Source: Clostridia bacterium (GTDB lineage Bacteria; Bacillota; Clostridia; Oscillospirales; CAG-272). From it: a stretch of DNA of 64,000 nt. Made by a program: the position numbers and the translations under genes. Location of the stretch: the NCBI GenBank assembly GCA_017456145.1, contig JAFTJZ010000034.1:2412-66411 (forward strand), in the 5' to 3' direction. This document shows, in pieces, positions 5,003 through 23,908 of the stretch (position 1 is the first letter of the stretch; the number at the start of each line of letters is the position of its first letter). The notes beneath the pieces were generated by a model. The model saw nothing but the letters and a program-made list of their open reading frames with translations. It made no database searches and had not been told where the DNA came from.

Positions 5003-5031
5003 ATTATATCATATAAATGAAAATTTTGCAA
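5003..5031 (-). promoter_or_regulatory. Sigma-70 type promoter for the LytTR regulator gene
   Basis: Reverse strand reads TTGCAA, a 17-nt spacer, then TATAAT, about 40 nt upstream of ATG 4962. Confidence 0.6.
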
Positions 5032-5086
5032 TATCCTTTTGAAAAATTTTTCTTGGAAAAGCATAGATTTTTTAACTTTTTTTCTT

Positions 5087-6526
5087 TTAGGGGGAGAATT
5101 TCGGCATCCCGGGGAATTTTTTCTGATTTTCCGGGAGAAACATTCCTTCCTCTTTGGCGTCAAGTGCCCGATCGATCAGCAGCTCCAACCGATTATATTC
5201 GGGATATTCCAGCACGAGACTCAGAAGAAACGAGAGCGCCGCGCCGATCTCCGCGCCGCGAAAGCCAAAGCGGACGAGCGTTTTTCCATCGATATCGAGT
5301 CCCTCCGTCGAGATGCAATCGCCCCGTGCGGCGATTTCCTCGCAGCGCGTCATGGCTCGGCGATAAGACGCAGGGAGGGCATCGGCCGATATCGTCTGTC
5401 CCCCCCCTCCCTTTCGAGCAAGAGACCGGCAGTGCGTATCATCCATGGCGCAGACACCGCCAAGCAGCAGCACACGCGCCGTCAGATCGCGGTAGTGGGC
5501 CATCATACGCCGCAGCGCAGCATCATTTTGCGGGCAAAGCGCATAGGAGCCGTCAAGATAAGCCGCCGTCTGTCGCGTCACGGCATTGGAAAGTCGCAGT
5601 GCACTGCAGCTGACGTGCGCAAGCTCGGCGGGAGCCGATTCGGGATTCTCCTTCCTATATATATCACACGGCGTACGCATCAGCTGTGCCATCCGCAGCG
5701 GTGCGTCGGGGGGCAGCAGGGTGGCGCGCGCGATATCGGCGGGGGACGGCGCGCAGGGGAGGTGCGGCAAAACGTACTGCCACAGCTGTGCCTCCTCGAT
5801 CAGTGTCAATCCGTTGCCAAGGGGCATCGGGCTCTCCAGCATACGCATCCATTCCGCGGCACAGCGCTCACGGGAGATCTTGGACAAGCGATCGCCAAGG
5901 GCCGAGAGCGCGGCGCGCGTCCTTGGCTCGACAGTAAAGCCCAGCTGCACGGAAAAGCGGATACAGCGTAAAATCCGCAGCGCATCCTCCTCAAAGCGGC
6001 GGTAAGGATCGCCGACGCAGCGCAGCACACCCGCAGCAAGATCCTCCTGCCCGCCGTAAAGGTCCACCAGCTCGGCATCTCTGCCGATCTCCACGGTCAG
6101 CGCGACATCGCAAGCGAAGTCGGGCAATGCAGCGGCAGGCAGACGGCAGGCCATGGCGTTGACGGTAAAGTCGCGGCGGGCAAGATCATCGGCGATGCGG
6201 TCGGTGAAAAGGACACTGTCGGGGTGTCTGCCGTCGGTATAGCTCCCATCAAGACGATAGGTGGTACATTCGATGGGCTCCCCGTCGGCAAGGGCGGTCA
6301 CCGTTCCATGCTTGAGTCCCGTTTCAATGGTACGCAGACCTGCGCGGGAAAAGATCTCCAGCATTTTTGCGGGAGTGGCGGCGGTGGTGACATCCATATC
6401 GTGCGGCGTTTGCCCGCGCATGGCGTCACGCAAGCAACCGCCGACAATATAGGCGGGATACCCGTTTTGTTCCAGCGCATGGAGCACCCGCAGCGCGGCG
6501 GGCGAGATGGTGATGGTAGTGGACAT
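5087..6526 (-). CDS. cca: CCA-adding tRNA nucleotidyltransferase
   Basis: ORF 5087..6559 trimmed to ATG 6526 (GGAAAGGAGcccctATG). It carries the poly(A) polymerase/CCA family motifs YIVGGCLRDAMRG and HDMDVTT. Confidence 0.9.
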   Translation of the reverse strand: MSTTITISPAALRVLHALEQNGYPAYIVGGCLRDAMRGQTPHDMDVTTAATPAKMLEIFSRAGLRTIETGLKHGTVTALADGEPIECTTYRLDGSYTDGRHPDSVLFTDRIADDLARRDFTVNAMACRLPAAALPDFACDVALTVEIGRDAELVDLYGGQEDLAAGVLRCVGDPYRRFEEDALRILRCIRFSVQLGFTVEPRTRAALSALGDRLSKISRERCAAEWMRMLESPMPLGNGLTLIEEAQLWQYVLPHLPCAPSPADIARATLLPPDAPLRMAQLMRTPCDIYRKENPESAPAELAHVSCSALRLSNAVTRQTAAYLDGSYALCPQNDAALRRMMAHYRDLTARVLLLGGVCAMDDTHCRSLARKGGGGQTISADALPASYRRAMTRCEEIAARGDCISTEGLDIDGKTLVRFGFRGAEIGAALSFLLSLVLEYPEYNRLELLIDRALDAKEEGMFLPENQKKFPGMPKFSP

Positions 6527-6627: not shown

Positions 6628-6840
6628 TCAGGCAAAAAAATCGTTGACGGTGCACTGCAGCAGCGCAGCCAGCACGGGGAGCAAGGTAATATCGGGATAA
6701 CATTCCTCCCGCTCCCACTTGGAAATGGCCTGTGGCGAGACGCCGCACAGCTCGCCGAACCGCTGCTGGGAATATCCACGCGCGGCGCGATAATGCTTGA
6801 TCTTCTCGGAAATGATGATTTTACCACTCGGCATCGGCAT
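6628..6840 (-). CDS. XRE-family HTH transcriptional regulator (70 aa)
   Basis: The motif SEKIKHYRAARGYSQQRFGELCGVSPQAISKWEREECYPD is a Cro/C1-type HTH. Confidence 0.85.
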   Translation of the reverse strand: MPMPSGKIIISEKIKHYRAARGYSQQRFGELCGVSPQAISKWEREECYPDITLLPVLAALLQCTVNDFFA

Positions 6841-6863
6841 ACGGCTCCTTTCTTTTCCTTACA

Positions 6864-7418
6864 TTATATACTATCTTTTTGCGCGGGGGCAATTTTTCGG
6901 TAAGTTTCTCTCTCTCGGCTCAAAAGTCCGCAGCCGATCATTTCCCGCCGAATGGTACAATGATCCTCATGATACCGGTGAATGATGTCGTTGACCTCGG
7001 TCTCGTCGTAGTCACGCCCCGACTCAAAGTCCTTGGCAATCTCGCAGAGCACGATCTCCCGCTTTTTGCGCTGGGTAGGCAGCTGTGTCAGCCTGCCGTA
7101 TTTGAAAAAGTGCGAAAGGACTTCCTTTCTGTATTTTTCCTCACTGTCCATGACGGGCTTTTCTTTTTTGATGCATTCATAAAGCGGCTTATTGAAAAGC
7201 TCGCGGTTGAGCGAATAGATCATGTAAAACTGTGAGCGCGAGCAGTTGACCACACCTGCCGCCTCCAGCTTTTTGAGATGGTAACAGATGGTCGCGGGAG
7301 TGAGCGACAGGTCGCAGGCGATTTTCTCTACATATGAGTCCTCACGCAGGAGAATGTTGAGAATATTCAACCGCGTTTCGTCGGCAAGCAGCTTGAGTAG
7401 CTCTAATTTTTGCTTCAT
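6864..7418 (-). CDS. ArsR-type winged-helix regulator fused to a DUF2087-like C-terminal domain
   Basis: ORF 6864..7514 trimmed to MKQKLELLKLLADETRLNILNILL...ATICYHLKKLEAAGVV (ArsR HTH). The C-terminus ...ETEVNDIIHRYHEDHCTIRREMI is DUF2087-like. The ATG overlaps the stop of the upstream gene (ATGA at 7415..7418). Confidence 0.8.
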   Translation of the reverse strand: MKQKLELLKLLADETRLNILNILLREDSYVEKIACDLSLTPATICYHLKKLEAAGVVNCSRSQFYMIYSLNRELFNKPLYECIKKEKPVMDSEEKYRKEVLSHFFKYGRLTQLPTQRKKREIVLCEIAKDFESGRDYDETEVNDIIHRYHEDHCTIRREMIGCGLLSRERETYRKIAPAQKDSI

Positions 7419-9637: not shown

Positions 9638-12007
9638 ATGAGGATGATTACACACCATCGTGTGCCGCACGGCGCGATTTTCCAGAGTGACGAGGGCATT
9701 GTCCTGCGCGTGCAGGCTTGGCGGGAGGACATTCTGCGTCTCTCCTGCACCAAGGGCAACTTTACCGACGGGGAGAGCGACATTGTCACCGCCTCGCCGA
9801 ACAACGTTCCGCTCATTTTGACCGAGGAGGCGGATCGCATCACCGTCGGCACCTCGCGCGTGACGCTGGAGATCCGCCGCCACACCTTTGCCATGCGCTT
9901 TTTGCGGGGCGGGACAGAGATTCTTCGTCTTGCCTCGGAACCGCTGCAGCTGCTGGACACCACCGTCACCGTCCCACGCCACACCGCCGACCGCGAGACA
10001 CCCGACCGCTTGAAGTTGGTCAAAACCGACACGCTCCCCGGCTACCGTTTCTCGCTCTCGCTTGATCTTGATCCCAACGATGTGATCTACGGTCTGGGGC
10101 AATACGGTAACGGCAGCCTCAACCGTCGCGAGGTCGCGCTGGAGCTCTACCAAATGAACAACTTTGCGCCCGTTCCCTTTATGGTCTCCGACCGCGGCTG
10201 GGGTATTCTGGTGGACACAGGAGCTTATTCGACCTTCTCCCGCGATGCCTTCGGCACCACCTTCTACACCGATGCCGTCAGCATGGGCGATTTCTATTTC
10301 TGCGGGAGCGAGAGCATCGACGGCGCCATCGCCGCCTACCGCACCCTGACCGGTGCCGCGCCCATGATGCCCAAGTGGCTGTTCGGCTACGCGCAGAGCA
10401 AGGAGCACTACCACACCGGGGAGGAGCTGCTCTCGGTGCTATGTGAATACCGCCGCCGTGGCGTACCGCTCGATCTGATCGTGCAGGACTGGAACTACTG
10501 GAAGGAGGGCACTTGGAGTGACAAATCCTTTGATCCCGCCCGCTATCCCGACCCCACCGCCATGTGCGACGAGGTACACAAAAACCATGCCCACATTATG
10601 ATCTCGGTCTGGCCCAACACCCGCGGGGGCGACAGTTTCCGCGAGCTGTTTGATAAGGACGGGCTGCTGACCGACGAGGGCACCTTTGGCGGGGGCGGCG
10701 TTTACAATGTCTTTGACGCTGCCGCCTGCGACATCTACACCTCACAGCTGGAAAACATCCGCCGCCACGGCTTTGATGCGTGGTGGTGCGATGCGACCGA
10801 GCCGTTTGAGACGGGATACGGCGACCGCATCACACCGAGCGAGCTCAGAGAGCGCGTCATGCCTTACTACCGCCGCTATTTTGACAGCCGCAAGATCAAT
10901 CTCTTTTCCCTGCTCCACGCGGGCAATGTCTATCATTACACCCGCCGTGCGGAAAATGAAAAAAAGCGCGTCGTCAACCTCACTCGCTCAGGCTACGCGG
11001 GACAGCAGAGATACGGCACTATCGTCTGGAGCGGTGATATTGGCGGCTCGTTTGCCGAGATGAAACGGCAAATCGCCGAGGGGTTGAATTTCTGCGCCTC
11101 GGGGCTGCCCTACTGGTCGCTGGACATCGGTGGTTTCTTCCCGACGCACGGCAGCGCCACCTTCAACTGCCATGTTCCCTACCACGCCGTCAGCGAGCCC
11201 GGCTACCGCGAGCTGTACGTTCGCTGGCTGCAGCTTGGCTGCTTTCTGCCCGTTTTCCGCTCCCACGGCACCACCTTCCCCCGCGAGATCTGGCGCTTTG
11301 GCGAGAAGGGGGAGCCATTCTACGATGCGATTGAAAAATTCATCCGCCTGCGCTACACCCTGATGCCTTACATCTACTCCACGGCATGGCAGGTGACCAA
11401 AAATCACAAGACTTTTATTCGCCTGCTTGCCTTTGATTTTCCGCATGACGCCCGTGCCCTGACCGAGGATACCACGTATCTGTTCGGTCGGTCACTGCTG
11501 GTCAGCCCTGTCACCGAGCCTCAATACTATGAGGGGGCCGACATACCGCTCGACGTACCGCAGATCAAGGACGTTTATCTGCCCGCAGGCGCGGATTGGT
11601 ACAACTACTTCACAGGCGAGCGCTTTGCGGGCGGCAATGTCGTCGCGGTGGGCACACCGCTGGACTCCATGCCACTCTTTGTCCGCGCGGGGAGCATCCT
11701 GCCCACCTCGCCCGTCATGCAGTACGTGGATGAGATCCCCGACGCGCCCTACACCGTCACGGTCTATCCCGGCGCGGACGCAGACTTCACGCTCTACGAG
11801 GACAGCGGCGACGGCTACGCCTATGAGGCGGGCGAATACGCCGAGGTCGATCTCCACTGGAGCGATACGGCGCACACGCTGACCGTCTGTGCCCGCCGCG
11901 GCGACTTCCCCACGCTGGTCCGCAGCCGCACCATGCATCTGCGCGTCGTTGGCGGCAAGGAGACGACCGTTACCTACATTGGCGAGAGGATTTGCGTCGA
12001 GCTGTGA
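9638..12007 (+). CDS. Glycoside hydrolase family 31 (alpha-glucosidase/alpha-xylosidase-like)
   Basis: 789 aa with GGAGGATAGGAGT before the ATG. GH31-type motifs are present: DLIVQDWNYWKEG, ISVWPN, DAWWCDATEPF and VWSGDIGGSF. Confidence 0.85.
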   Translation: MRMITHHRVPHGAIFQSDEGIVLRVQAWREDILRLSCTKGNFTDGESDIVTASPNNVPLILTEEADRITVGTSRVTLEIRRHTFAMRFLRGGTEILRLASEPLQLLDTTVTVPRHTADRETPDRLKLVKTDTLPGYRFSLSLDLDPNDVIYGLGQYGNGSLNRREVALELYQMNNFAPVPFMVSDRGWGILVDTGAYSTFSRDAFGTTFYTDAVSMGDFYFCGSESIDGAIAAYRTLTGAAPMMPKWLFGYAQSKEHYHTGEELLSVLCEYRRRGVPLDLIVQDWNYWKEGTWSDKSFDPARYPDPTAMCDEVHKNHAHIMISVWPNTRGGDSFRELFDKDGLLTDEGTFGGGGVYNVFDAAACDIYTSQLENIRRHGFDAWWCDATEPFETGYGDRITPSELRERVMPYYRRYFDSRKINLFSLLHAGNVYHYTRRAENEKKRVVNLTRSGYAGQQRYGTIVWSGDIGGSFAEMKRQIAEGLNFCASGLPYWSLDIGGFFPTHGSATFNCHVPYHAVSEPGYRELYVRWLQLGCFLPVFRSHGTTFPREIWRFGEKGEPFYDAIEKFIRLRYTLMPYIYSTAWQVTKNHKTFIRLLAFDFPHDARALTEDTTYLFGRSLLVSPVTEPQYYEGADIPLDVPQIKDVYLPAGADWYNYFTGERFAGGNVVAVGTPLDSMPLFVRAGSILPTSPVMQYVDEIPDAPYTVTVYPGADADFTLYEDSGDGYAYEAGEYAEVDLHWSDTAHTLTVCARRGDFPTLVRSRTMHLRVVGGKETTVTYIGERICVEL

Positions 12008-12096
12008 GAAACAAAGGAGGTTGGGGCTTTCCTCCAAGCCCCGCGCCCCCGGGCGTCCGAACAAAAAAATTTCTTCAGTTTTTCCGTATTTCTTGC

Positions 12097-12118
12097 AACC
12101 AAAGTTCTTAAAAACCGT
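12097..12118 (+). promoter_or_regulatory. Possible ECF-type autoregulated promoter
   Basis: An AAC-N16-CGT arrangement (gcAACcaaagttcttaaaaacCGTac) lies about 50 nt upstream of the ECF sigma start. The call rests on this pattern alone. Confidence 0.3.
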
Positions 12119-12166
12119 ACTTATTAGGTGAAAAAGCTTTTTCATCACAATCAAGGAGGTGACCAC

Positions 12167-12721
12167 ATGGACGACCTGCAGATCATCGATCTGTTTTTCG
12201 CACGGGATGAGCAGGCCATCGCGCAGACCGAGGCAAAATACGGCAAACTCTGCCTGACGCTGGCAGGCAACATCTTAGGCAACCCACAGGATGCCGAAGA
12301 GTGTGTCAACGACACCTATCTGCAATTATGGAACCAAATCCCACCCACCCGACCGCAGAATTTCAAAGCATTTCTCTGCAAGATCGCAAGAAATTTATCG
12401 CTCAAGCGGCTGGAATATCGCAACGCGGCCAAGCGTTCGGCGCAGATGACACTCCCCCTGCCCGACGATGCACCGCCCTTACCCGACATCGGCGCACCGT
12501 CCGTCGCAGATGAGGCAGCGCTCGCCGCGCTGATCAGCGATTTTCTCCGCGCGGAGCCGCAGATCTCTCGCTTGGTCTTTTTGCGCAAATACTGGTTCTT
12601 CGACACGGTCGCCGATATCGCCGCGCGGTATTCCATCAGCGAAAGTCGCGTCAAATCCATGCTGCACCGCACCAGAGGCCGCCTGATGGCACATCTGAAA
12701 AAGGAGGGCTTTGAACCATGA
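12167..12721 (+). CDS. ECF-type RNA polymerase sigma-70 family factor
   Basis: ORF 12128..12721 trimmed to ATG 12167 (GGAGGtgaccacATG). Region 2 is DAEECVNDTYLQLW and the region 4 HTH is TVADIAARYSISESRVKSMLHRTRGRL. Confidence 0.85.
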   Translation: MDDLQIIDLFFARDEQAIAQTEAKYGKLCLTLAGNILGNPQDAEECVNDTYLQLWNQIPPTRPQNFKAFLCKIARNLSLKRLEYRNAAKRSAQMTLPLPDDAPPLPDIGAPSVADEAALAALISDFLRAEPQISRLVFLRKYWFFDTVADIAARYSISESRVKSMLHRTRGRLMAHLKKEGFEP

Positions 12722-15172: not shown

Positions 15173-16765
15173 ATGAAACTGAAAGAACTTACGCGTTTCA
15201 TAAGGAATAAGTTTCAGTTTTATATCGTTTTTACGTGTATGAAAGAGTTGCTACGCACCTGTATTAGCATTTTGATTCCCATTTTGTTATCAAAAATCAT
15301 ATTGAAAGCTACGTCGGGGAATGTGAATGAGGTGTTATTTTTTGCTATCATCATTCTTTCGATCGAACTTGTAGAATTGATTATTTTCTGCATAAGCGAT
15401 ATTCAGCTTCAAAAAAACTTATCAAAAAACAAACATGTTTGCAAATTGGAGTTTTATAAGTTCTTCTTCGACAGACCCCTACATGCGTTGTTTTCCCTTG
15501 AAGTTGGAAAAACGAAAGAAAAATTAAACGACGATTTTGAGACGATAACGAAAAAATATACCTCAACCTACCCGAAAACCATCACATCACTGTTATCTGC
15601 GATTGCATATTTTCTGTATTTGGTTTCCTTGAGCCCATGGATCGCGCTTATTTTCTTTGCGATCTCGCTGCTGCAAGTGATCCCGCCTATAATGATTCGA
15701 AAGTATCTACAGGTAAATTATGACGACTGCCGAGATATAGAGGCTGAATTAACAAACTTCGTTGTAGGTGGGTATCGAGCATTTTTGCTGATCAAGCTAT
15801 ACAAGCTGGACAACTGGTGGAAGAAAAAGCTCGCCGTACTTCATAAGAAGTATTCGAAAATCGGAAGGAAAAGCATCTACACAGGAACCGCAGAAAGTGT
15901 GCTTAACGATATGATCAACAGTATTCTTACTTACGTTACATACGGCATCATCGGTATGCTTGTTTTGAACGGTGTTGTCATGCTTGATGTTGGTATTCAG
16001 GCAATCGCTGTATCGGGAAGTGTTTTCGGATTGGTCAAGACCATATTCGAAGTGATTCGAGATGTTGCCGTAAGCAGAGCAGCCGAAATCCGACTTTCCG
16101 ATTCGTCCTTGTCAACTGAATCAACCGAAGGCCATATAAGGACAGGAGATATCAACGTTTCTGATTTAACTTTTTCGTATGATGAAAATGTGCTGATTTC
16201 AAATCTGAGCCTTTCAATGAATCATCCCAAAATATCTGTCATGAAAGGATCCAATGGAAGTGGTAAAACGACCCTGCTTTATTTGATTGCCGGAGTTTTG
16301 AAAAGCAACACGGGAGAAGTATCCATAGATGGCATTTCTTCGTCCTCTCTTTCTTCTTCCAACTATCCAAGAGATTTGTTCTTCCTTCCCCAAGAGGATG
16401 CCGTGTTCAATTTCACGGCAATAGAGTTGTTCGGCATGATGCTTCCTGACCGTAATGACGAGGTTTTGGAGCAAGCAAAAAGATTTGGCTTGAATGAGGA
16501 CTTATTGCATGGCTCCAAAATAAGTGAGCTGTCCGGCGGAGAGCGAAAAAAGGTCTTTCTTACGATTGCGTTTGTGATCGATCCCGTATTGATGATATTG
16601 GACGAACCAACGAATTCGTTGGATGTGGAAGGAAAAGCCCAGCTCAAAGAATTATTGCGTCAGAGAGATAAGCGTACGCTACTTGTGACTCATGATGGAT
16701 TTATGGATGATATTGCAGGACAAACATATGTTATCAATAAAGGAGCCAATGATGAAAACATATAA
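15173..16765 (+). CDS. ABC exporter, fused permease + ATPase (subunit 1)
   Basis: ORF 15107..16765 trimmed to ATG 15173 (GGGAGGaaaaggcaATG). It has an N-terminal 6-TM-like domain, Walker A GSNGSGKTT, signature LSGGERKK, Walker B LMILDEPT and H-loop VTHD. The gene is AT-rich. Confidence 0.85.
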   Translation: MKLKELTRFIRNKFQFYIVFTCMKELLRTCISILIPILLSKIILKATSGNVNEVLFFAIIILSIELVELIIFCISDIQLQKNLSKNKHVCKLEFYKFFFDRPLHALFSLEVGKTKEKLNDDFETITKKYTSTYPKTITSLLSAIAYFLYLVSLSPWIALIFFAISLLQVIPPIMIRKYLQVNYDDCRDIEAELTNFVVGGYRAFLLIKLYKLDNWWKKKLAVLHKKYSKIGRKSIYTGTAESVLNDMINSILTYVTYGIIGMLVLNGVVMLDVGIQAIAVSGSVFGLVKTIFEVIRDVAVSRAAEIRLSDSSLSTESTEGHIRTGDINVSDLTFSYDENVLISNLSLSMNHPKISVMKGSNGSGKTTLLYLIAGVLKSNTGEVSIDGISSSSLSSSNYPRDLFFLPQEDAVFNFTAIELFGMMLPDRNDEVLEQAKRFGLNEDLLHGSKISELSGGERKKVFLTIAFVIDPVLMILDEPTNSLDVEGKAQLKELLRQRDKRTLLVTHDGFMDDIAGQTYVINKGANDENI

Positions 16766-18348
16766 AAAACGAGTTGTCAGGGATTGTGCTAGGACCGTTT
16801 TTCCCTCTGCTGTATTTAACGTATTGGATGCGGTCATTGGCGCATTGCTGACCGTGTATATTTCAAGCATTCTGGCCAAGTTTGCCGATGCCATATTCGA
16901 GATGGATATCACTTACGGCATGGAGAATTTCGGGATACTGATCATATGCGTTCTAATCTCGCTGTTTGTTATGCCCTTATTTGGTACCGTAAAGGAAATT
17001 CTTCTCTTTGACAATTCCTTAAAGCATGACCGCATGATCTACGGGAGATATTTGAACAAAAGATTCAAAGAGGCCCGCCAATTTTCCGAAGGTGAGGTTC
17101 AATATCGGCTTGAACAGGATGCCATAGACGTGCGCTGCATGTGGTTGGATTTGGTTACGAAAAGCATAGCCACGCCGATCATGCTCGGATATTTGCTCTA
17201 TCATTCGATACGGATCAGTCTGTTGTATACGGTCATTATTTTTCTTGTTTCAGCAATAAAATTAGTTATGCCTATAGTCACGAAAAAACTGAACACCAAA
17301 TACGATATGGAAGTTCGAGAATATCAGACGCAAGTGCGATCCTACGAATTTGAAGTGCTGGATCAACCGCATAAAGTAAAGATGTACGGTCTGACATCAC
17401 CGCTGCTGCAAAGATTCGATCAAATTTATTTGCGCTTTTTTCGTGATACATTAAAAAAAAAGCATTCGACTATCATTCATAACATCCAATCTGTCCGGTA
17501 TGCTCGATGCATTTTGCACGATTATTATTCTTTTGTCCGGAGCCATCCTGGTTGCCAAAGGCGAAATGACAGCGGGAGGTATCGCGGCCGCGTTCGGATT
17601 CCTTTCGATTTTCAATACGCTGTTTAAAAACATTTCTTCTTTTATTCGTGATTATCCCGTTTTCGGAACGCTGGTTGACCGATTGACCGTATTTTATACT
17701 CACGAAGAAGAAACCTCCGGTGCGCAAGTATCTTCTTTGAATGAAATATCTGTCAGCGACCTATCTTTTTCCTACGAAGAAAAAGCCGTATTTCAAAATG
17801 TGAATTTTACGATACACCAAGGAGATAAGGTTGCGATATGCGGCCAAAACGGGAGCGGCAAATCGACTTTGATCAAGCTACTATGCGGAGTTTTGAAAGA
17901 TTACTCGGGTCATATTAAAATTGGCGGGCAAGAATTGTCGGAGTTATCTGCTCTTAACTGGTACGATTGCATTGCCTATACCGAACAGGATCCATATCTG
18001 TTCCCGATGAGCATAAAAGAAAATATTCATATTGGAAATCTTAACGCATCTGATGAGGAGCTTGATGAAATCATTGGAAAACTTGAAATAGAACATCTCA
18101 TCGACCGCAACCGCGATATTCATTCAGAAAAACAGCAGTTGTCTGGAGGAGAAAAACAGAAGATTTCCATAGGGCGAGCATTGCTGAAAAATACGCCCAT
18201 CATCATAATGGACGAGCCAAGCAACAATTTGGATACAGAGGCTTTGGCGTGGCTTCGTGATTTTATCAGCCAATCGCCCAAGACGATTGTTTTCGTGTCC
18301 CACGATTCGGATTTAATATCTTGCGCCGATTATACTGTTTGTTTGTAA
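16752..18348 (+). pseudogene. ABC exporter, fused permease + ATPase (subunit 2), split by a frameshift in an A9 run
   Basis: ORFs 16692..17627 (TM domain) and 17500..18348 (end of TM domain plus NBD: GQNGSGKST, LSGGEKQK, IIIMDEPS) are consecutive parts of one ABC protein in frames 0 and +1. The switch lies at A9 17453..17461. Removing one A gives ...FRDTLKKSIRLSFITSNLSGMLDAF... Confidence 0.7.
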
Positions 18349-19646: not shown

Positions 19647-19817
19647 TAGAAACACCTCACAGAATTTATTGAATCCGGATTCTGCTATAATTGTAACACA
19701 TGGTACTAAAAAAAACAATAACTTGTTTTTTTAATATGATGCAACCTGCAGTTGAGAGACTGTGCTTTTCAGCATTTCCCGACGCTTGCGTCTGGGGCAA
19801 GCATATAAGAGACATAG

Positions 19818-19857
19818 CAAAAAGCAGGCGCACATCTTCGATGTACTCCTGCTTTTT
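19818..19857 (-). terminator. Intrinsic terminator following tRNA-like module U3 (exact copy of the tRNA-Glu terminator)
   Basis: The minus strand reads AAAAAGCAGGAGTACATCGAAGATGTGCGCCTGCTTTTT, identical to 20148..20186. Confidence 0.7.
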
Positions 19858-19858
19858 G

Positions 19859-19964
19859 TGGTGACCCGTACGGGAATCTGAACCCCGCTTTGCGCCGAAA
19901 GAAAATCAGCGCTCCTACTTCAGCGTAGCGCAAAACAGCAAATGCTTGCGCATTTGCGGGGCAC
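19859..19964 (-). ncRNA. tRNA-3'-end-bearing structured module U3 (not a complete tRNA)
   Basis: The minus strand reads GCCCCGCAAAUGCGCAAGCAUUUGCUGUUUUGCGC-[32 nt]-GCGCAAAGCGGGGUUCAGAUUCCCGUACGGGUCACCA. The last 20 nt are identical to the 3' end of the adjacent tRNA-Glu. It is paralogous to U2. Confidence 0.45.
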
Positions 19965-19987
19965 AATTCGGTTAGAATCGGCAACAC

Positions 19988-20016
19988 AAAAGGCACCACC
20001 TTCGGTGATGCCTTTT
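19988..20016 (-). terminator. Intrinsic terminator following module U2
   Basis: The minus strand reads AAAAGGCATCACCGAAGGTGGTGCCTTTTGTG. Confidence 0.7.
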
Positions 20017-20020
20017 GTAT

Positions 20021-20126
20021 TGGTGACCCGTACGGGAATCTGAACCCCGCTTTGCGCCCTCAAAAATTCAACGCTTGCGCTGCAGCAATGCGCAAAGCAG
20101 CAAATGCTTGCGCATTTGCGGGGCTC
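20021..20126 (-). ncRNA. tRNA-3'-end-bearing structured module U2 (not a complete tRNA)
   Basis: Same 5' 35 nt (1 mismatch) and same 3' 37 nt as U3, with a divergent 32-nt centre. Predicted helices are GCAAAUGC-GCAA-GCAUUUGC (GNRA loop), CUUUGCGC/GCGCAAAG and CCCCG/CGGGG. Confidence 0.45.
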
Positions 20127-20147
20127 GATTCAATAAGAGATCATAGC

Positions 20148-20186
20148 AAAAAGCAGGCGCACATCTTCGATGTACTCCTGCTTTTT
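20148..20186 (-). terminator. Intrinsic terminator of tRNA-Glu
   Basis: GCAGG...CCTGC stem with an inner ACATC-GAA-GATGT helix, followed by TTTTT. It starts 2 nt after the CCA end. Confidence 0.8.
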
Positions 20187-20187
20187 G

Positions 20188-20263
20188 TGGTGACCCGTAC
20201 GGGAATCGAACCCATGTTTCCAGCGTGAGAGGCTAGCGTCTTGAACCGCTTGACCAACGGGCC
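20188..20263 (-). tRNA. tRNA-Glu (anticodon CUC), CCA encoded
   Basis: The minus strand reads GGCCCGUUGGUCAAGCGGUUCAAGACGCUAGCCUCUCACGCUGGAAACAUGGGUUCGAUUCCCGUACGGGUCACCA. It folds as a cloverleaf with acceptor GGCCCGU/ACGGGUC, anticodon stem CUAGC/GCUGG, loop CUCUCAC and T-loop UUCGAUU. It closely resembles the canonical Firmicutes tRNA-Glu. Confidence 0.9.
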
Positions 20264-20282
20264 GTTTTTTCAACGCTCGTAT

Positions 20283-20311
20283 ATTATATCACAGCGAAAA
20301 CGATTTGTCAA
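20283..20311 (-). promoter_or_regulatory. Consensus promoter of the tRNA-Glu unit
   Basis: Reverse strand reads TTGACA (20311..20306), a 17-nt spacer, then TATAAT (20288..20283), about 20 nt before tRNA position 1. Confidence 0.7.
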
Positions 20312-20456
20312 TAGGGTTTTTGAAAAAAACAAGATTTTTTATAAAAATTTCTCGCAAGTGCGGCCAACGGACGATCACAAGATTTTCTGCATGAGATATT
20401 TGACTGCTTTGCAGGCAAAAAAGCACAAATACCGCGCAGAGCGCAGCAGTGCCCCC

Positions 20457-21595: not shown

Positions 21596-21626
21596 CTTTG
21601 ATCATTCCTTTCTAAAAACATATTTG

Positions 21627-21838
21627 CCAAGGGGCGTTGCCCTGTGCCTCCGGCAGCCAAGGGGCGTCGCCCTGTGCCTCCGGCGGCCAAGGGGCGTCGC
21701 CCCTTAAACCCCACCAAGAACCTTTTTGAAAAAAGGTTCTTGGAACTCCAAAAACTTTGAATCAATTTTTGAGTTGAATTTTTAGCGGTTCTGTTCTCTC
21801 CATGCGTTTCTGTTGTCCATGTGGGGCCCCTACCCCAC
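21627..21838 (+). repeat. Multi-hairpin intergenic repeat, subfamily 2, copy a (with a 30-nt tandem head)
   Basis: The head is 2.6 tandem copies of CCAAGGGGCGT(T/C)GCCCTGTGCCTCCGGC(A/G)G (21627..21705). This is followed by the core palindrome CCAAGAACCTTTTTGAAAAAAGGTTCTTGG (21714..21743) and the tail GTGGGGCCCCTACCCCAC. 90 nt (21708..21797) are identical to 23731..23820. Confidence 0.85.
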
Positions 21839-21990
21839 AAGATGGCAGAGAAATAGTTTCTGCCCCGGCGGAACGCCGTAGGAGGCAGGCTAATCCTCGC
21901 GACACGCACCGGGTAACAGAGCAAAATGCACCCGTAAAGACCCAATCCTGAAATTTGTGTCTTGATATATCATCATATTCTCCATCCTTA

Positions 21991-23679: not shown

Positions 23680-23710
23680 AATAATAATCCTTTCGTTTGG
23701 TTATAGTGGA

Positions 23711-23862
23711 CAAGGGGCGTTGCCCCTTGAACCCCACCAAGAACCTTTTTGAAAAAAGGTTCTTGGAACTCCAAAAACTTTGAATCAATTTTTGAGTTGA
23801 ATTTTTAGCGGTTCTGTTCTGTTTACGCGGTTCTGTTGTCCATGTGGGGCCCCTACCCCACA
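23711..23862 (+). repeat. Multi-hairpin intergenic repeat, subfamily 2, copy b
   Basis: CAAGGGGCGTTGCCCCTTG hairpin, core palindrome at 23737..23766, and tail GTGGGGCCCCTACCCCAC. It is a direct repeat of copy a. Confidence 0.85.
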
Positions 23863-23908
23863 TATCAGCAGCGAGATACGTTCAGCAGCAGACATTCCCG
23901 TCAAACAT

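Follow-up and report, generated by a model that had tools for sequence, protein, structure and literature searches.

The DNA analysed here, a stretch of 64,000 nucleotides (nt) from a Clostridia bacterium (GenBank assembly GCA_017456145.1, contig JAFTJZ010000034.1, positions 2,412 to 66,411 of the forward strand) that is called the window below, carries a tRNA-Glu gene followed in its trailer by two copies of a structured module, each of which ends with a copy of the 3′-end of the tRNA. All elements of this array are read on the minus strand, in the order promoter, tRNA-Glu(CUC), terminator T1, module U2, terminator T2, module U3 and a second, exact copy of T1. The promoter (20283-20311) is of the sigma-70 type, with TTGACA and TATAAT hexamers that match the consensus at 12 of 12 positions across a spacer of 17 nt, and with a TG extension. 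The tRNA gene (20188-20263), in which the CCA is encoded, is recognized by ARAGORN and by the Rfam tRNA model (RF00005, 59.4 bits). Both elements had been named in an earlier note, made from the letters of the window, and are borne out here. Predicted terminators, consisting of a hairpin and a T run, stand after the tRNA, U2 and U3, as that note had also claimed. T1 (20142-20187) is a long symmetric hairpin (inverted repeat 20147-20187, read by symmetry with I3; terminator scan, 20175-20159) that has an A run before it and a T run after it and looks bidirectional, and T2 (19981-20020; inverted repeat 19982-20000 with 20004-20022; terminator scan, 20007-19994), which is unlike T1 in sequence, is likewise a symmetric hairpin between A and T runs. 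Terminator-like sites in this region, with the G+C-containing hairpin and T run by which intrinsic terminators are predicted, number 8 in 850 nt, against 1.0 expected.

The last 20 nt of tRNA-Glu, GATTCCCGTACGGGTCACCA, occur exactly three times (20188-20207, 20021-20040 and 19859-19878; 0.01 expected by chance), so that the reuse of the tRNA end by U2 and U3 stands as it had been described, and a 27-nt block at the 5′-end of the modules is found twice (chance expectation 0). U2 (20021-20131) and its paralogue U3 (19859-19969) form a direct repeat with a period of 162 nt and 83% identity over 118 nt. The tRNA end together with T1 makes up a 66-nt block that is duplicated at 100% identity (19813-19878 and 20142-20207) and that contains the second T1 copy (19813-19858; repeat family D2). 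The two modules begin about 5 nt further upstream than had been thought, at 20131 and 19969. Their 32-nt centres, said to be unrelated, are better regarded as diverged homologues, with 18 of 32 ungapped identities, a score that only 7 of 2000 shuffles equal. Nor does the proposal of a truncated fourth 5′-fragment beyond the second T1 (19741-19812) fare well: this doubtful remnant gives no match at E ≤ 1 to the covariance model R1 described below, its alignment with U3 is not significant, and its best local alignment with U2, which is marginal (equalled by 11 of 1000 shuffles), involves the centre of U2 rather than the 5′-end. Clearly shared are only the 8 nt TCTCTTAT that follow T1, with little else in common; the region may represent the beginning of another unit, now decayed. 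The array itself is real and not an assembly artefact, because it is found again in an independent metagenome assembly (L001). A further three contigs from this strain end within the repeat, and in the within-species comparison the contigs with an identical neighbouring protein either came from the same strain or broke inside the repeat; the repeat array explains why metagenome contigs break at this locus.

When folded singly, and thus independently of the covariance model, nearly all modules of the family to which U2 and U3 belong give one three-way junction with the helices P1, P2 and P3. P1 is a 12-bp closing helix, the 3′-strand of which is a copy of the T arm with one extra A after UUC (GGGGUUC-A-GAUUC), and the 5′-strand of which, GAAUC(U/A/-)GA(A/G)CCCC, is antisense to the T arm. 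P2 is a hairpin of 8 bp, the loop of which, as read from the aligned rows, is of the GNRA type on the sense strand for roughly nine of 21 modules, and P3 is a 9-bp stem beneath an apex that is variable and rich in pyrimidines. Outside the junction fall the last 15 nt, CCGUACGGGUCACCA; in the Glu form the 3′-end of the module is formed by the last nucleotides of the tRNA itself, ACGGGUCACCA, and a predicted terminator of its own usually comes next. In the window, the P1 5′-strand GAAUCGAGCCCC of U2 or GAAUUGUGCCCC of U3 pairs with GGGGUUC(A)GAUUC, leaving the extra A bulged, which in some other species is paired with U and in others lies opposite an A. In U2, the P1 5′-strand (20120-20131) is followed by P2 (20100-20119, with a GCAA loop at 20108-20111), the P3 5′-strand (20090-20098), the variable apex (20058-20089), the P3 3′-strand (20049-20057), the P1 3′-strand (20036-20048, with the extra A at 20041) and the tail (20021-20035), and the minimum free energy (MFE) fold displays this junction at −49.5 kcal/mol, with a z-score against shuffles of −2.65. 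The corresponding parts of U3 are the P1 5′-strand (19958-19969), P2 (19938-19957), the P3 5′-strand (19928-19936), the apex (19896-19927), the P3 3′-strand (19887-19895), the P1 3′-strand (19874-19886, with the extra A at 19879) and the tail (19859-19873). The compact junction of the earlier note is therefore retained as far as its helices go, but P1, which holds the T-arm copy, had been missed. Pairing of the P1 5′-strand in trans with the T arm of the real tRNA was considered and dropped: as read from the sequences, an additional U or A is present in this strand in about half of the modules, which means that it follows the module's own 3′-strand and not the tRNA.

The helices are supported by comparison between species. 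The covariance model R1, built on 15 modules, scores 112.4 bits on U2 and 104.8 bits on U3, and elsewhere in the 64-kb window it matches only the 3′-end of the tRNA itself, weakly and in part (22.6 bits, E 7e-4). Among 21 modules, standard pairs occupy 85.5% of the pair cells, as against 71% in column shuffles and 22-45% when the partner is slid by 1-3 columns. Compensatory changes occur at 20 of the 29 pairs, including all eight of P2 and eight of nine in P3, and none of 500 shuffles reaches any of the five measures used; the predicted helices recur in other species. The single U2/U3 difference that had been noticed in a stem, C-G in U2 and U-G in U3, continues in the aligned rows as U-A in the close relative L024. 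Differences between U2 and U3 fall in 3 of 58 paired columns as against 14 of 38 unpaired ones (p=2e-4), and those between U3 and the L024 module in 3 of 58 paired columns as against 24 of 40 unpaired ones. In these alignments, paired columns that change far less than unpaired columns are a signature of selection on the helices.

Further members of the family were sought with an exact 20-mer that spans the odd T loop, GGTTCAGATTCCCGTACGGG, in a collection of species-representative genomes. The search gave 18 loci, 17 of them in 15 genomes of uncultured Clostridia, Oscillospiraceae or Eubacteriales from animal guts; the eighteenth (L007), in Actinoplanes, was judged to be a chance match. Five further contigs with the 20-mer came from a metagenome collection. 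Wherever a locus includes a tRNA, the module comes shortly after it on the same strand, and the predicted terminators are oriented like the tRNA. The tRNA in question is tRNA-Glu(CUC or UUC), which often forms a pair with a tRNA-Met gene ahead of it, in all tRNA-holding loci found with the 20-mer except L005, where tRNA-Lys precedes the same terminator and module as in L008. The layout throughout is a strong promoter, a tRNA, a terminator and then one to four units, most of them with a predicted terminator of their own, and the body of the module is kept across more than 12 species. No family of Rfam 15 covers the modules: the window region gave only the tRNA, both at the gathering threshold and at E ≤ 10, and the matches in 13 related loci were confined to tRNAs and, in one case, an unrelated Gut-1 RNA. 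Nothing alike was found in viral contigs by two exact-pattern scans or in plasmids and phages by blastn of U2, and a description of the motif was not found by literature searches. The family of tRNA-trailer modules thus appears to be undescribed so far. The idea of the earlier note that the modules are a family of structured RNAs attached to tRNAs is upheld in so far as they recur behind tRNAs in many species and covary in P2 and P3, but nothing was found to support their being primed by a tRNA.

A syntenic relative indicates which features are constant. The gene for a Peptidase_S51 protein that neighbours the array has a 77% identical orthologue in locus L028, where a tRNA-Arg(CCG) occupies the same position and is followed by a module (R1, 31.8 bits; E between 5e-7 and 3e-6, according to which sequence was searched). 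The P1 3′-strand of this module, CGCGGTTC-A-GAATCCGACT, is the T arm of tRNA-Arg with the same extra A after TTC, and the 5′-strand is its antisense, so that both strands of P1 have been rebuilt on the T arm of tRNA-Arg. The architecture of P2 and P3 is kept; the tail has no likeness to the tRNA past 10 nt, there is no acceptor or CCA tail, and no strong terminator (no U run) was read between the tRNA and the module. This one case shows that the constant features are the junction and a P1 based on the T arm with its extra A, and not the Glu tail. The other orthologous loci are variable: L029-L034 have no tRNA at this place, and L035 (3083-3300) and L036, from a related species, have a tRNA-Glu(CUC) beside the same Peptidase_S51 gene in the opposite orientation, with one terminator and no modules. 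This variability marks the region as a rearrangement hotspot.

The closest known parallel, which the earlier note had overlooked, is provided by the RtT repeats (RF00391, rttR) behind tRNA-Tyr of Escherichia coli, which have been known since about 1980 and for which, to our knowledge, there is no accepted function. The tyrT/tyrV locus of E. coli K-12 has four RtT units (133-137 bits) with a period of 178 nt, each ending with the last 19 nt of tRNA-Tyr, a 19-mer that is found six times in the locus, and the closing helix, GGGGAAGGAU paired with AUCCUUCCCC, joins the tRNA-derived tail to an internal antisense segment. Both systems therefore consist of tandem units in a tRNA trailer that end with a copy of the final 19-20 nt of the tRNA, a segment reaching from the T loop to CCA, and in both a branched interior is closed by a helix of the tRNA-derived tail with an antisense segment, and repeats shape the copy number. 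They are not homologous, because RF00391 does not match positions 19650-20350 of the window even at E ≤ 10. They also belong to different phyla and follow different tRNAs, tRNA-Tyr in E. coli and tRNA-Glu or tRNA-Arg here. Whereas the 178-nt units of E. coli have no terminators between them, the present modules are about 110 nt long and usually have one each, and they differ further in that the T loop and T stem are paired with an extra A to close a simple three-way junction. On this comparison, P1 of the window modules and the closing helix of RtT are best called analogous, not homologous. A second parallel is 3′ETS-leuZ of E. coli, reportedly a functional small RNA (sRNA) cut from the spacer of a tRNA operon. 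RNAs of this type resemble the modules in being by-products of tRNA transcripts that end at the operon terminator, but they sit before that terminator, are short and lightly structured and occur as single units without a copy of the tRNA end. The rtT RNA itself is reported to arise by processing of the tyrT transcript, and its role in stress responses is still unclear (bioRxiv 10.1101/2024.07.17.603846).

With about even confidence, the modules are taken here as a putative RtT-like tRNA-trailer RNA, the copy number of which would change by recombination between the repeated tRNA ends. A promoter scan of the window found no promoter belonging to the modules, and in other loci no conserved promoter was seen by eye in the spacers of 10-20 nt between the tRNA terminator and the module; similar strong promoters precede the tRNA in related loci. 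Expression would therefore need transcripts that start at the strong tRNA promoter and read through the tRNA terminator. A module with a tRNA-type 3′-end and a terminator might then be matured at its 3′-end like a tRNA, while P1 would prevent the pseudo-T arm from being handled as if it belonged to a tRNA. The number of copies would be altered by recombination, unequal or homologous, between the repeats of the tRNA end, and the perfect 66-nt repeat would represent a recent event. Judging from the 66-nt repeat, from the mixed arrays and from the joins of L023 and L026 described below, the repeated tRNA ends do mark recombination points. As a guess, processing could leave a stable by-product with a function in trans, as has been proposed for rtT and for sRNAs derived from tRNA spacers.

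Several points weigh against this reading. The alignments used for covariation were fitted to the model, which favours structure, and the search pattern fixed the 3′-strand of P1. Although the orientation of the modules is constant and the sense strand folds better than the antisense strand in 17 of 21 modules, by a mean of 1.8 kcal/mol (7-10 kcal/mol for the window copies), the difference in energy is borderline (Wilcoxon p=0.056). G-U pairs are no commoner than A-C mismatches (31 versus 37 overall, 17 versus 14 in the inner helices), partly because the register of outer P1 is ambiguous. A folded DNA strand would fit equally well, since RNA and DNA are not separated by the strand test. Few unpaired nucleotides are conserved, which leaves no obvious site for a ligand or target, and the strong hairpins of bidirectional appearance that enclose each module of the window would insulate it, which argues for little transcription. 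The copies L017b and L008 are clearly decaying, the tRNA-Arg form is known from the single locus L028, and the bare tRNA-Glu of L035 and L036 implies that the module is dispensable.

That the modules are DNA relics without function, left as attachment (att) scars or by unequal crossing-over in a former array and intact because they are recent or have been homogenized by gene conversion, is in our estimate unlikely. Elements that target tRNA genes, such as the CIMEs (cis-mobilizable elements) of Streptococcus, reportedly leave att-site repeats and occur in tandem accretions and reduced forms, and the array shares with these the tandem direct repeats of a tRNA 3′-end beside a variable region of low GC content (0.38-0.42 over 15-20 kb, the AT-rich island that the array had been said to adjoin). 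The repeats are identical from GATTCC in the T loop through CCA and beyond, over 20 nt, or 66 nt with T1, as at att sites in tRNA 3′-ends. In addition, the arrays of relatives differ in the number and kind of units, unit types are mixed in those of L018, L023 and L024, and last units are often truncated (e.g., L019, L028 and L009). In L023 and L026, which belong to the same species, different sequences are joined immediately after ...GGGTCACCA, at the tRNA end; L023 has two modules, a unit of another type (type B, below) and other downstream genes, and in L026 (oriented 10685-12295, opposite strand) the array of a single module is directly followed by a large open reading frame (ORF), the N-terminus of which was read as that of a putative serine recombinase. 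The scar reading also draws on the bare tRNA-Glu and the decaying copies and is for that reason not dead, but it is weakened, as had been thought, though for better reasons than those then given, namely the covariation, the conservation across species and the lack of an integrase. No integrase was found in the island at 14.7-19.7 kb, the only part of the window scanned for one, which holds only two helix-turn-helix (HTH) regulators and two ATP-binding cassette (ABC) transporters, one of them split, and which is not flanked by another copy of the tRNA end; nor was a recombinase-like ORF seen beside most arrays in other species, as judged from ORF lists without family searches. The comparison with relatives that had been called for thus gave a bare form in one related species, but modules that elsewhere mostly have no recombinase nearby. 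Unlike att-site repeats, the present ones enclose no element body, and the sequence between them, which is found in more than 12 species, is structurally constrained, with compensatory changes and with stems better conserved than loops, which scars would not show. A simple duplication of an att site would account neither for the constant extra A nor for the antisense strand, and no phage, plasmid or viral collection gave a match. A role in cis, such as in 3′-processing of the tRNA, in blocking exonucleases or, by stacked terminators, in shielding neighbouring genes, would instead account for the fixed place and orientation of the modules behind the tRNA, for the further terminator that usually comes with each unit and for a P1 built on whichever tRNA lies upstream. 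We consider it rather improbable, because a covarying three-way junction is more elaborate than a barrier requires, relatives get by with one terminator, and the L024 module runs straight into a gene with no terminator.

The modules could also be cassettes of folded single-stranded DNA, in which P1 would rebuild the T-arm duplex of the tRNA gene, the extrahelical A would be the point of exchange, and units of ~160 nt, comprising tRNA end, terminator and hairpin, would enter and leave at the T loop of a matching tRNA; to this we assign only a small chance. Folded single-stranded recombination sites are exemplified by attC of integrons and attP of the CTX phage, in which, as here, an imperfect hairpin with an extrahelical base and a variable apex rebuilds the duplex of a recombination site and units are arranged in arrays. 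P1 does equal the T-arm duplex of the upstream tRNA gene for Glu and Arg alike, the boundary of the unit lies exactly at the extra A, a hairpin read in L010 is inserted at this very position, unit types are mixed within tandem arrays, and the strand test is neutral between RNA and DNA. Nevertheless, the ORF lists, which were not followed by family searches, link no recombinase to the arrays, integron integrase and Xer context are lacking, and there is no sign of recombination taking place at the folded site. The units have no cargo genes, integron R boxes (RYYYAAC / GTTRRRY) were not seen by eye in the P1 strands GAATCGAGCCCC and GGGGTTCAGATTC, viral, phage and plasmid copies were not found, and a circle of ~165 nt would be very small. 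It is very improbable that the modules are unusual tRNA-like molecules, which would fold like a cloverleaf, serve as substrates of RNase P and either be charged or act as primers. The MFE fold of U3 does resemble a cloverleaf with a 3′-CCA end, and the tail is the true acceptor 3′-strand of tRNA-Glu with ACCA; this alternative fold, possible for U3, was rejected as not conserved. ARAGORN finds only tRNA-Glu in the window, and the Rfam tRNA model does not match U2 or U3 even at E ≤ 10, so that the modules are not tRNAs, as had been stated from the outset. The companion term tRNA-mimicking is doubtful, for in the covarying structure, a three-way junction, the T-arm copy is engaged in P1 pairing instead of being displayed as a T loop, and a matching 5′-strand of the acceptor is not conserved. 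The tRNA-Arg form has neither acceptor nor CCA tail, and the tail of the L025 module is unlike the adjacent tRNA. The tRNA-Other of Bacillus cereus, a pseudo-tRNA or tRNA-like RNA with a role outside translation (PMC3399842), is comparable as a tRNA-derived sequence, possibly regulatory, beside a variable genomic region; it has kept its cloverleaf, however, whereas here only the last 20-26 nt are derived from a tRNA and are paired in P1. A MITE (miniature inverted-repeat transposable element), a retron, a bridge RNA or omega RNA guide, a T-box, a fragment of a group II intron and a CRISPR-like array were all dropped, as no defining feature of any of them was found.

The modules are a family unrelated to RtT, in distant bacteria, that has the same design of trailer position, tRNA 3′-end and a closing helix that uses this end. 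Two independent inventions point either to a shared function or to a general process at the ends of tRNA genes that generates such units. With its covariation, its simple junction and a P1 that apparently tracks the identity of the upstream tRNA, the family makes a tractable second system for the study of tRNA-trailer repeat RNAs, and the candidate motif, which is absent from Rfam 15, can be used in the annotation of gut Clostridia.

Other kinds of unit occur in some of the related arrays. A type B trailer unit of 140-250 nt is found at L024:1730-1859 and as the third unit in the arrays of L018 and L023 (minus strand); it ends in a tRNA-Glu-like 3′-end, ATTTCGAT(C/A)..CCCGTACGGGTCAC, and contains hairpins of the types GTTTCGCGGAAGCGAAC and ATTTGGCGGC..GCCGCCAAAT. 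Short variants of about 70 nt without P3 lie behind tRNA-Glu(UUC) at L010:2440-2800, L012:3900-4110, L014:1-240, L020:480-760 and in L027, and in the second unit of L010, L020 and L014 the hairpin GTTTCGCAAAGCGAAAC stands exactly at the position of the extra A of the standard module. Two enlarged units of about 220 nt are present in L016 (minus strand), where the closing helix is extended to about 22 nt, CCCGTACTCCCATCGAACCCAC pairing with GTGGGTTCAGATTCCCGTACGGG, and thus covers the acceptor 3′-strand as well. When L020:380-480 is compared with L010:2358-2440, the tRNA-Glu ahead of the same terminator and modules is seen to be replaced by other DNA, with the remnant ..ATTCCCGTTCG..GGCTCACCA, which suggests an insertion into the tRNA gene. 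In L006 (oriented about 6800-7040) and at L025:360-600, a run of hairpin repeats that share GATTCCATAC lies downstream of the module and before a gene of ~118 aa. The Gut-1 RNA mentioned above (RF01706, 51.6 bits; L023:1394-1463) lies a few kb from the array and is apparently unrelated to it. At L028:4710-5090, the module is followed by a truncated further unit and then by a separate promoter with tRNA-Gln(CUG).

Some minor features of the window remain to be recorded. An A/T-only hairpin, AAAAAAACAAGTTATTGTTTTTTTT (19709-19733, minus strand), stands between the doubtful fourth fragment and the start of an HTH regulator gene and may be a weak terminator or part of the promoter region of that gene. 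Within the island, the second ABC transporter gene (16692-18348, plus strand) is split into two overlapping frames (16692-17627 and 17500-18348) and is probably a frameshifted pseudogene. On the other side of the array, tandem repeats of 30 nt occur at 21626-21715, and an intergenic repeat of 179 nt, with 90% identity between its copies at 21685-21863 and 23708-23886, contains the palindrome CCAAGAACCTTTTTGAAAAAAGGTTCTTGG; a similar palindrome lies beside the truncated module of L028 (about 5030-5100).

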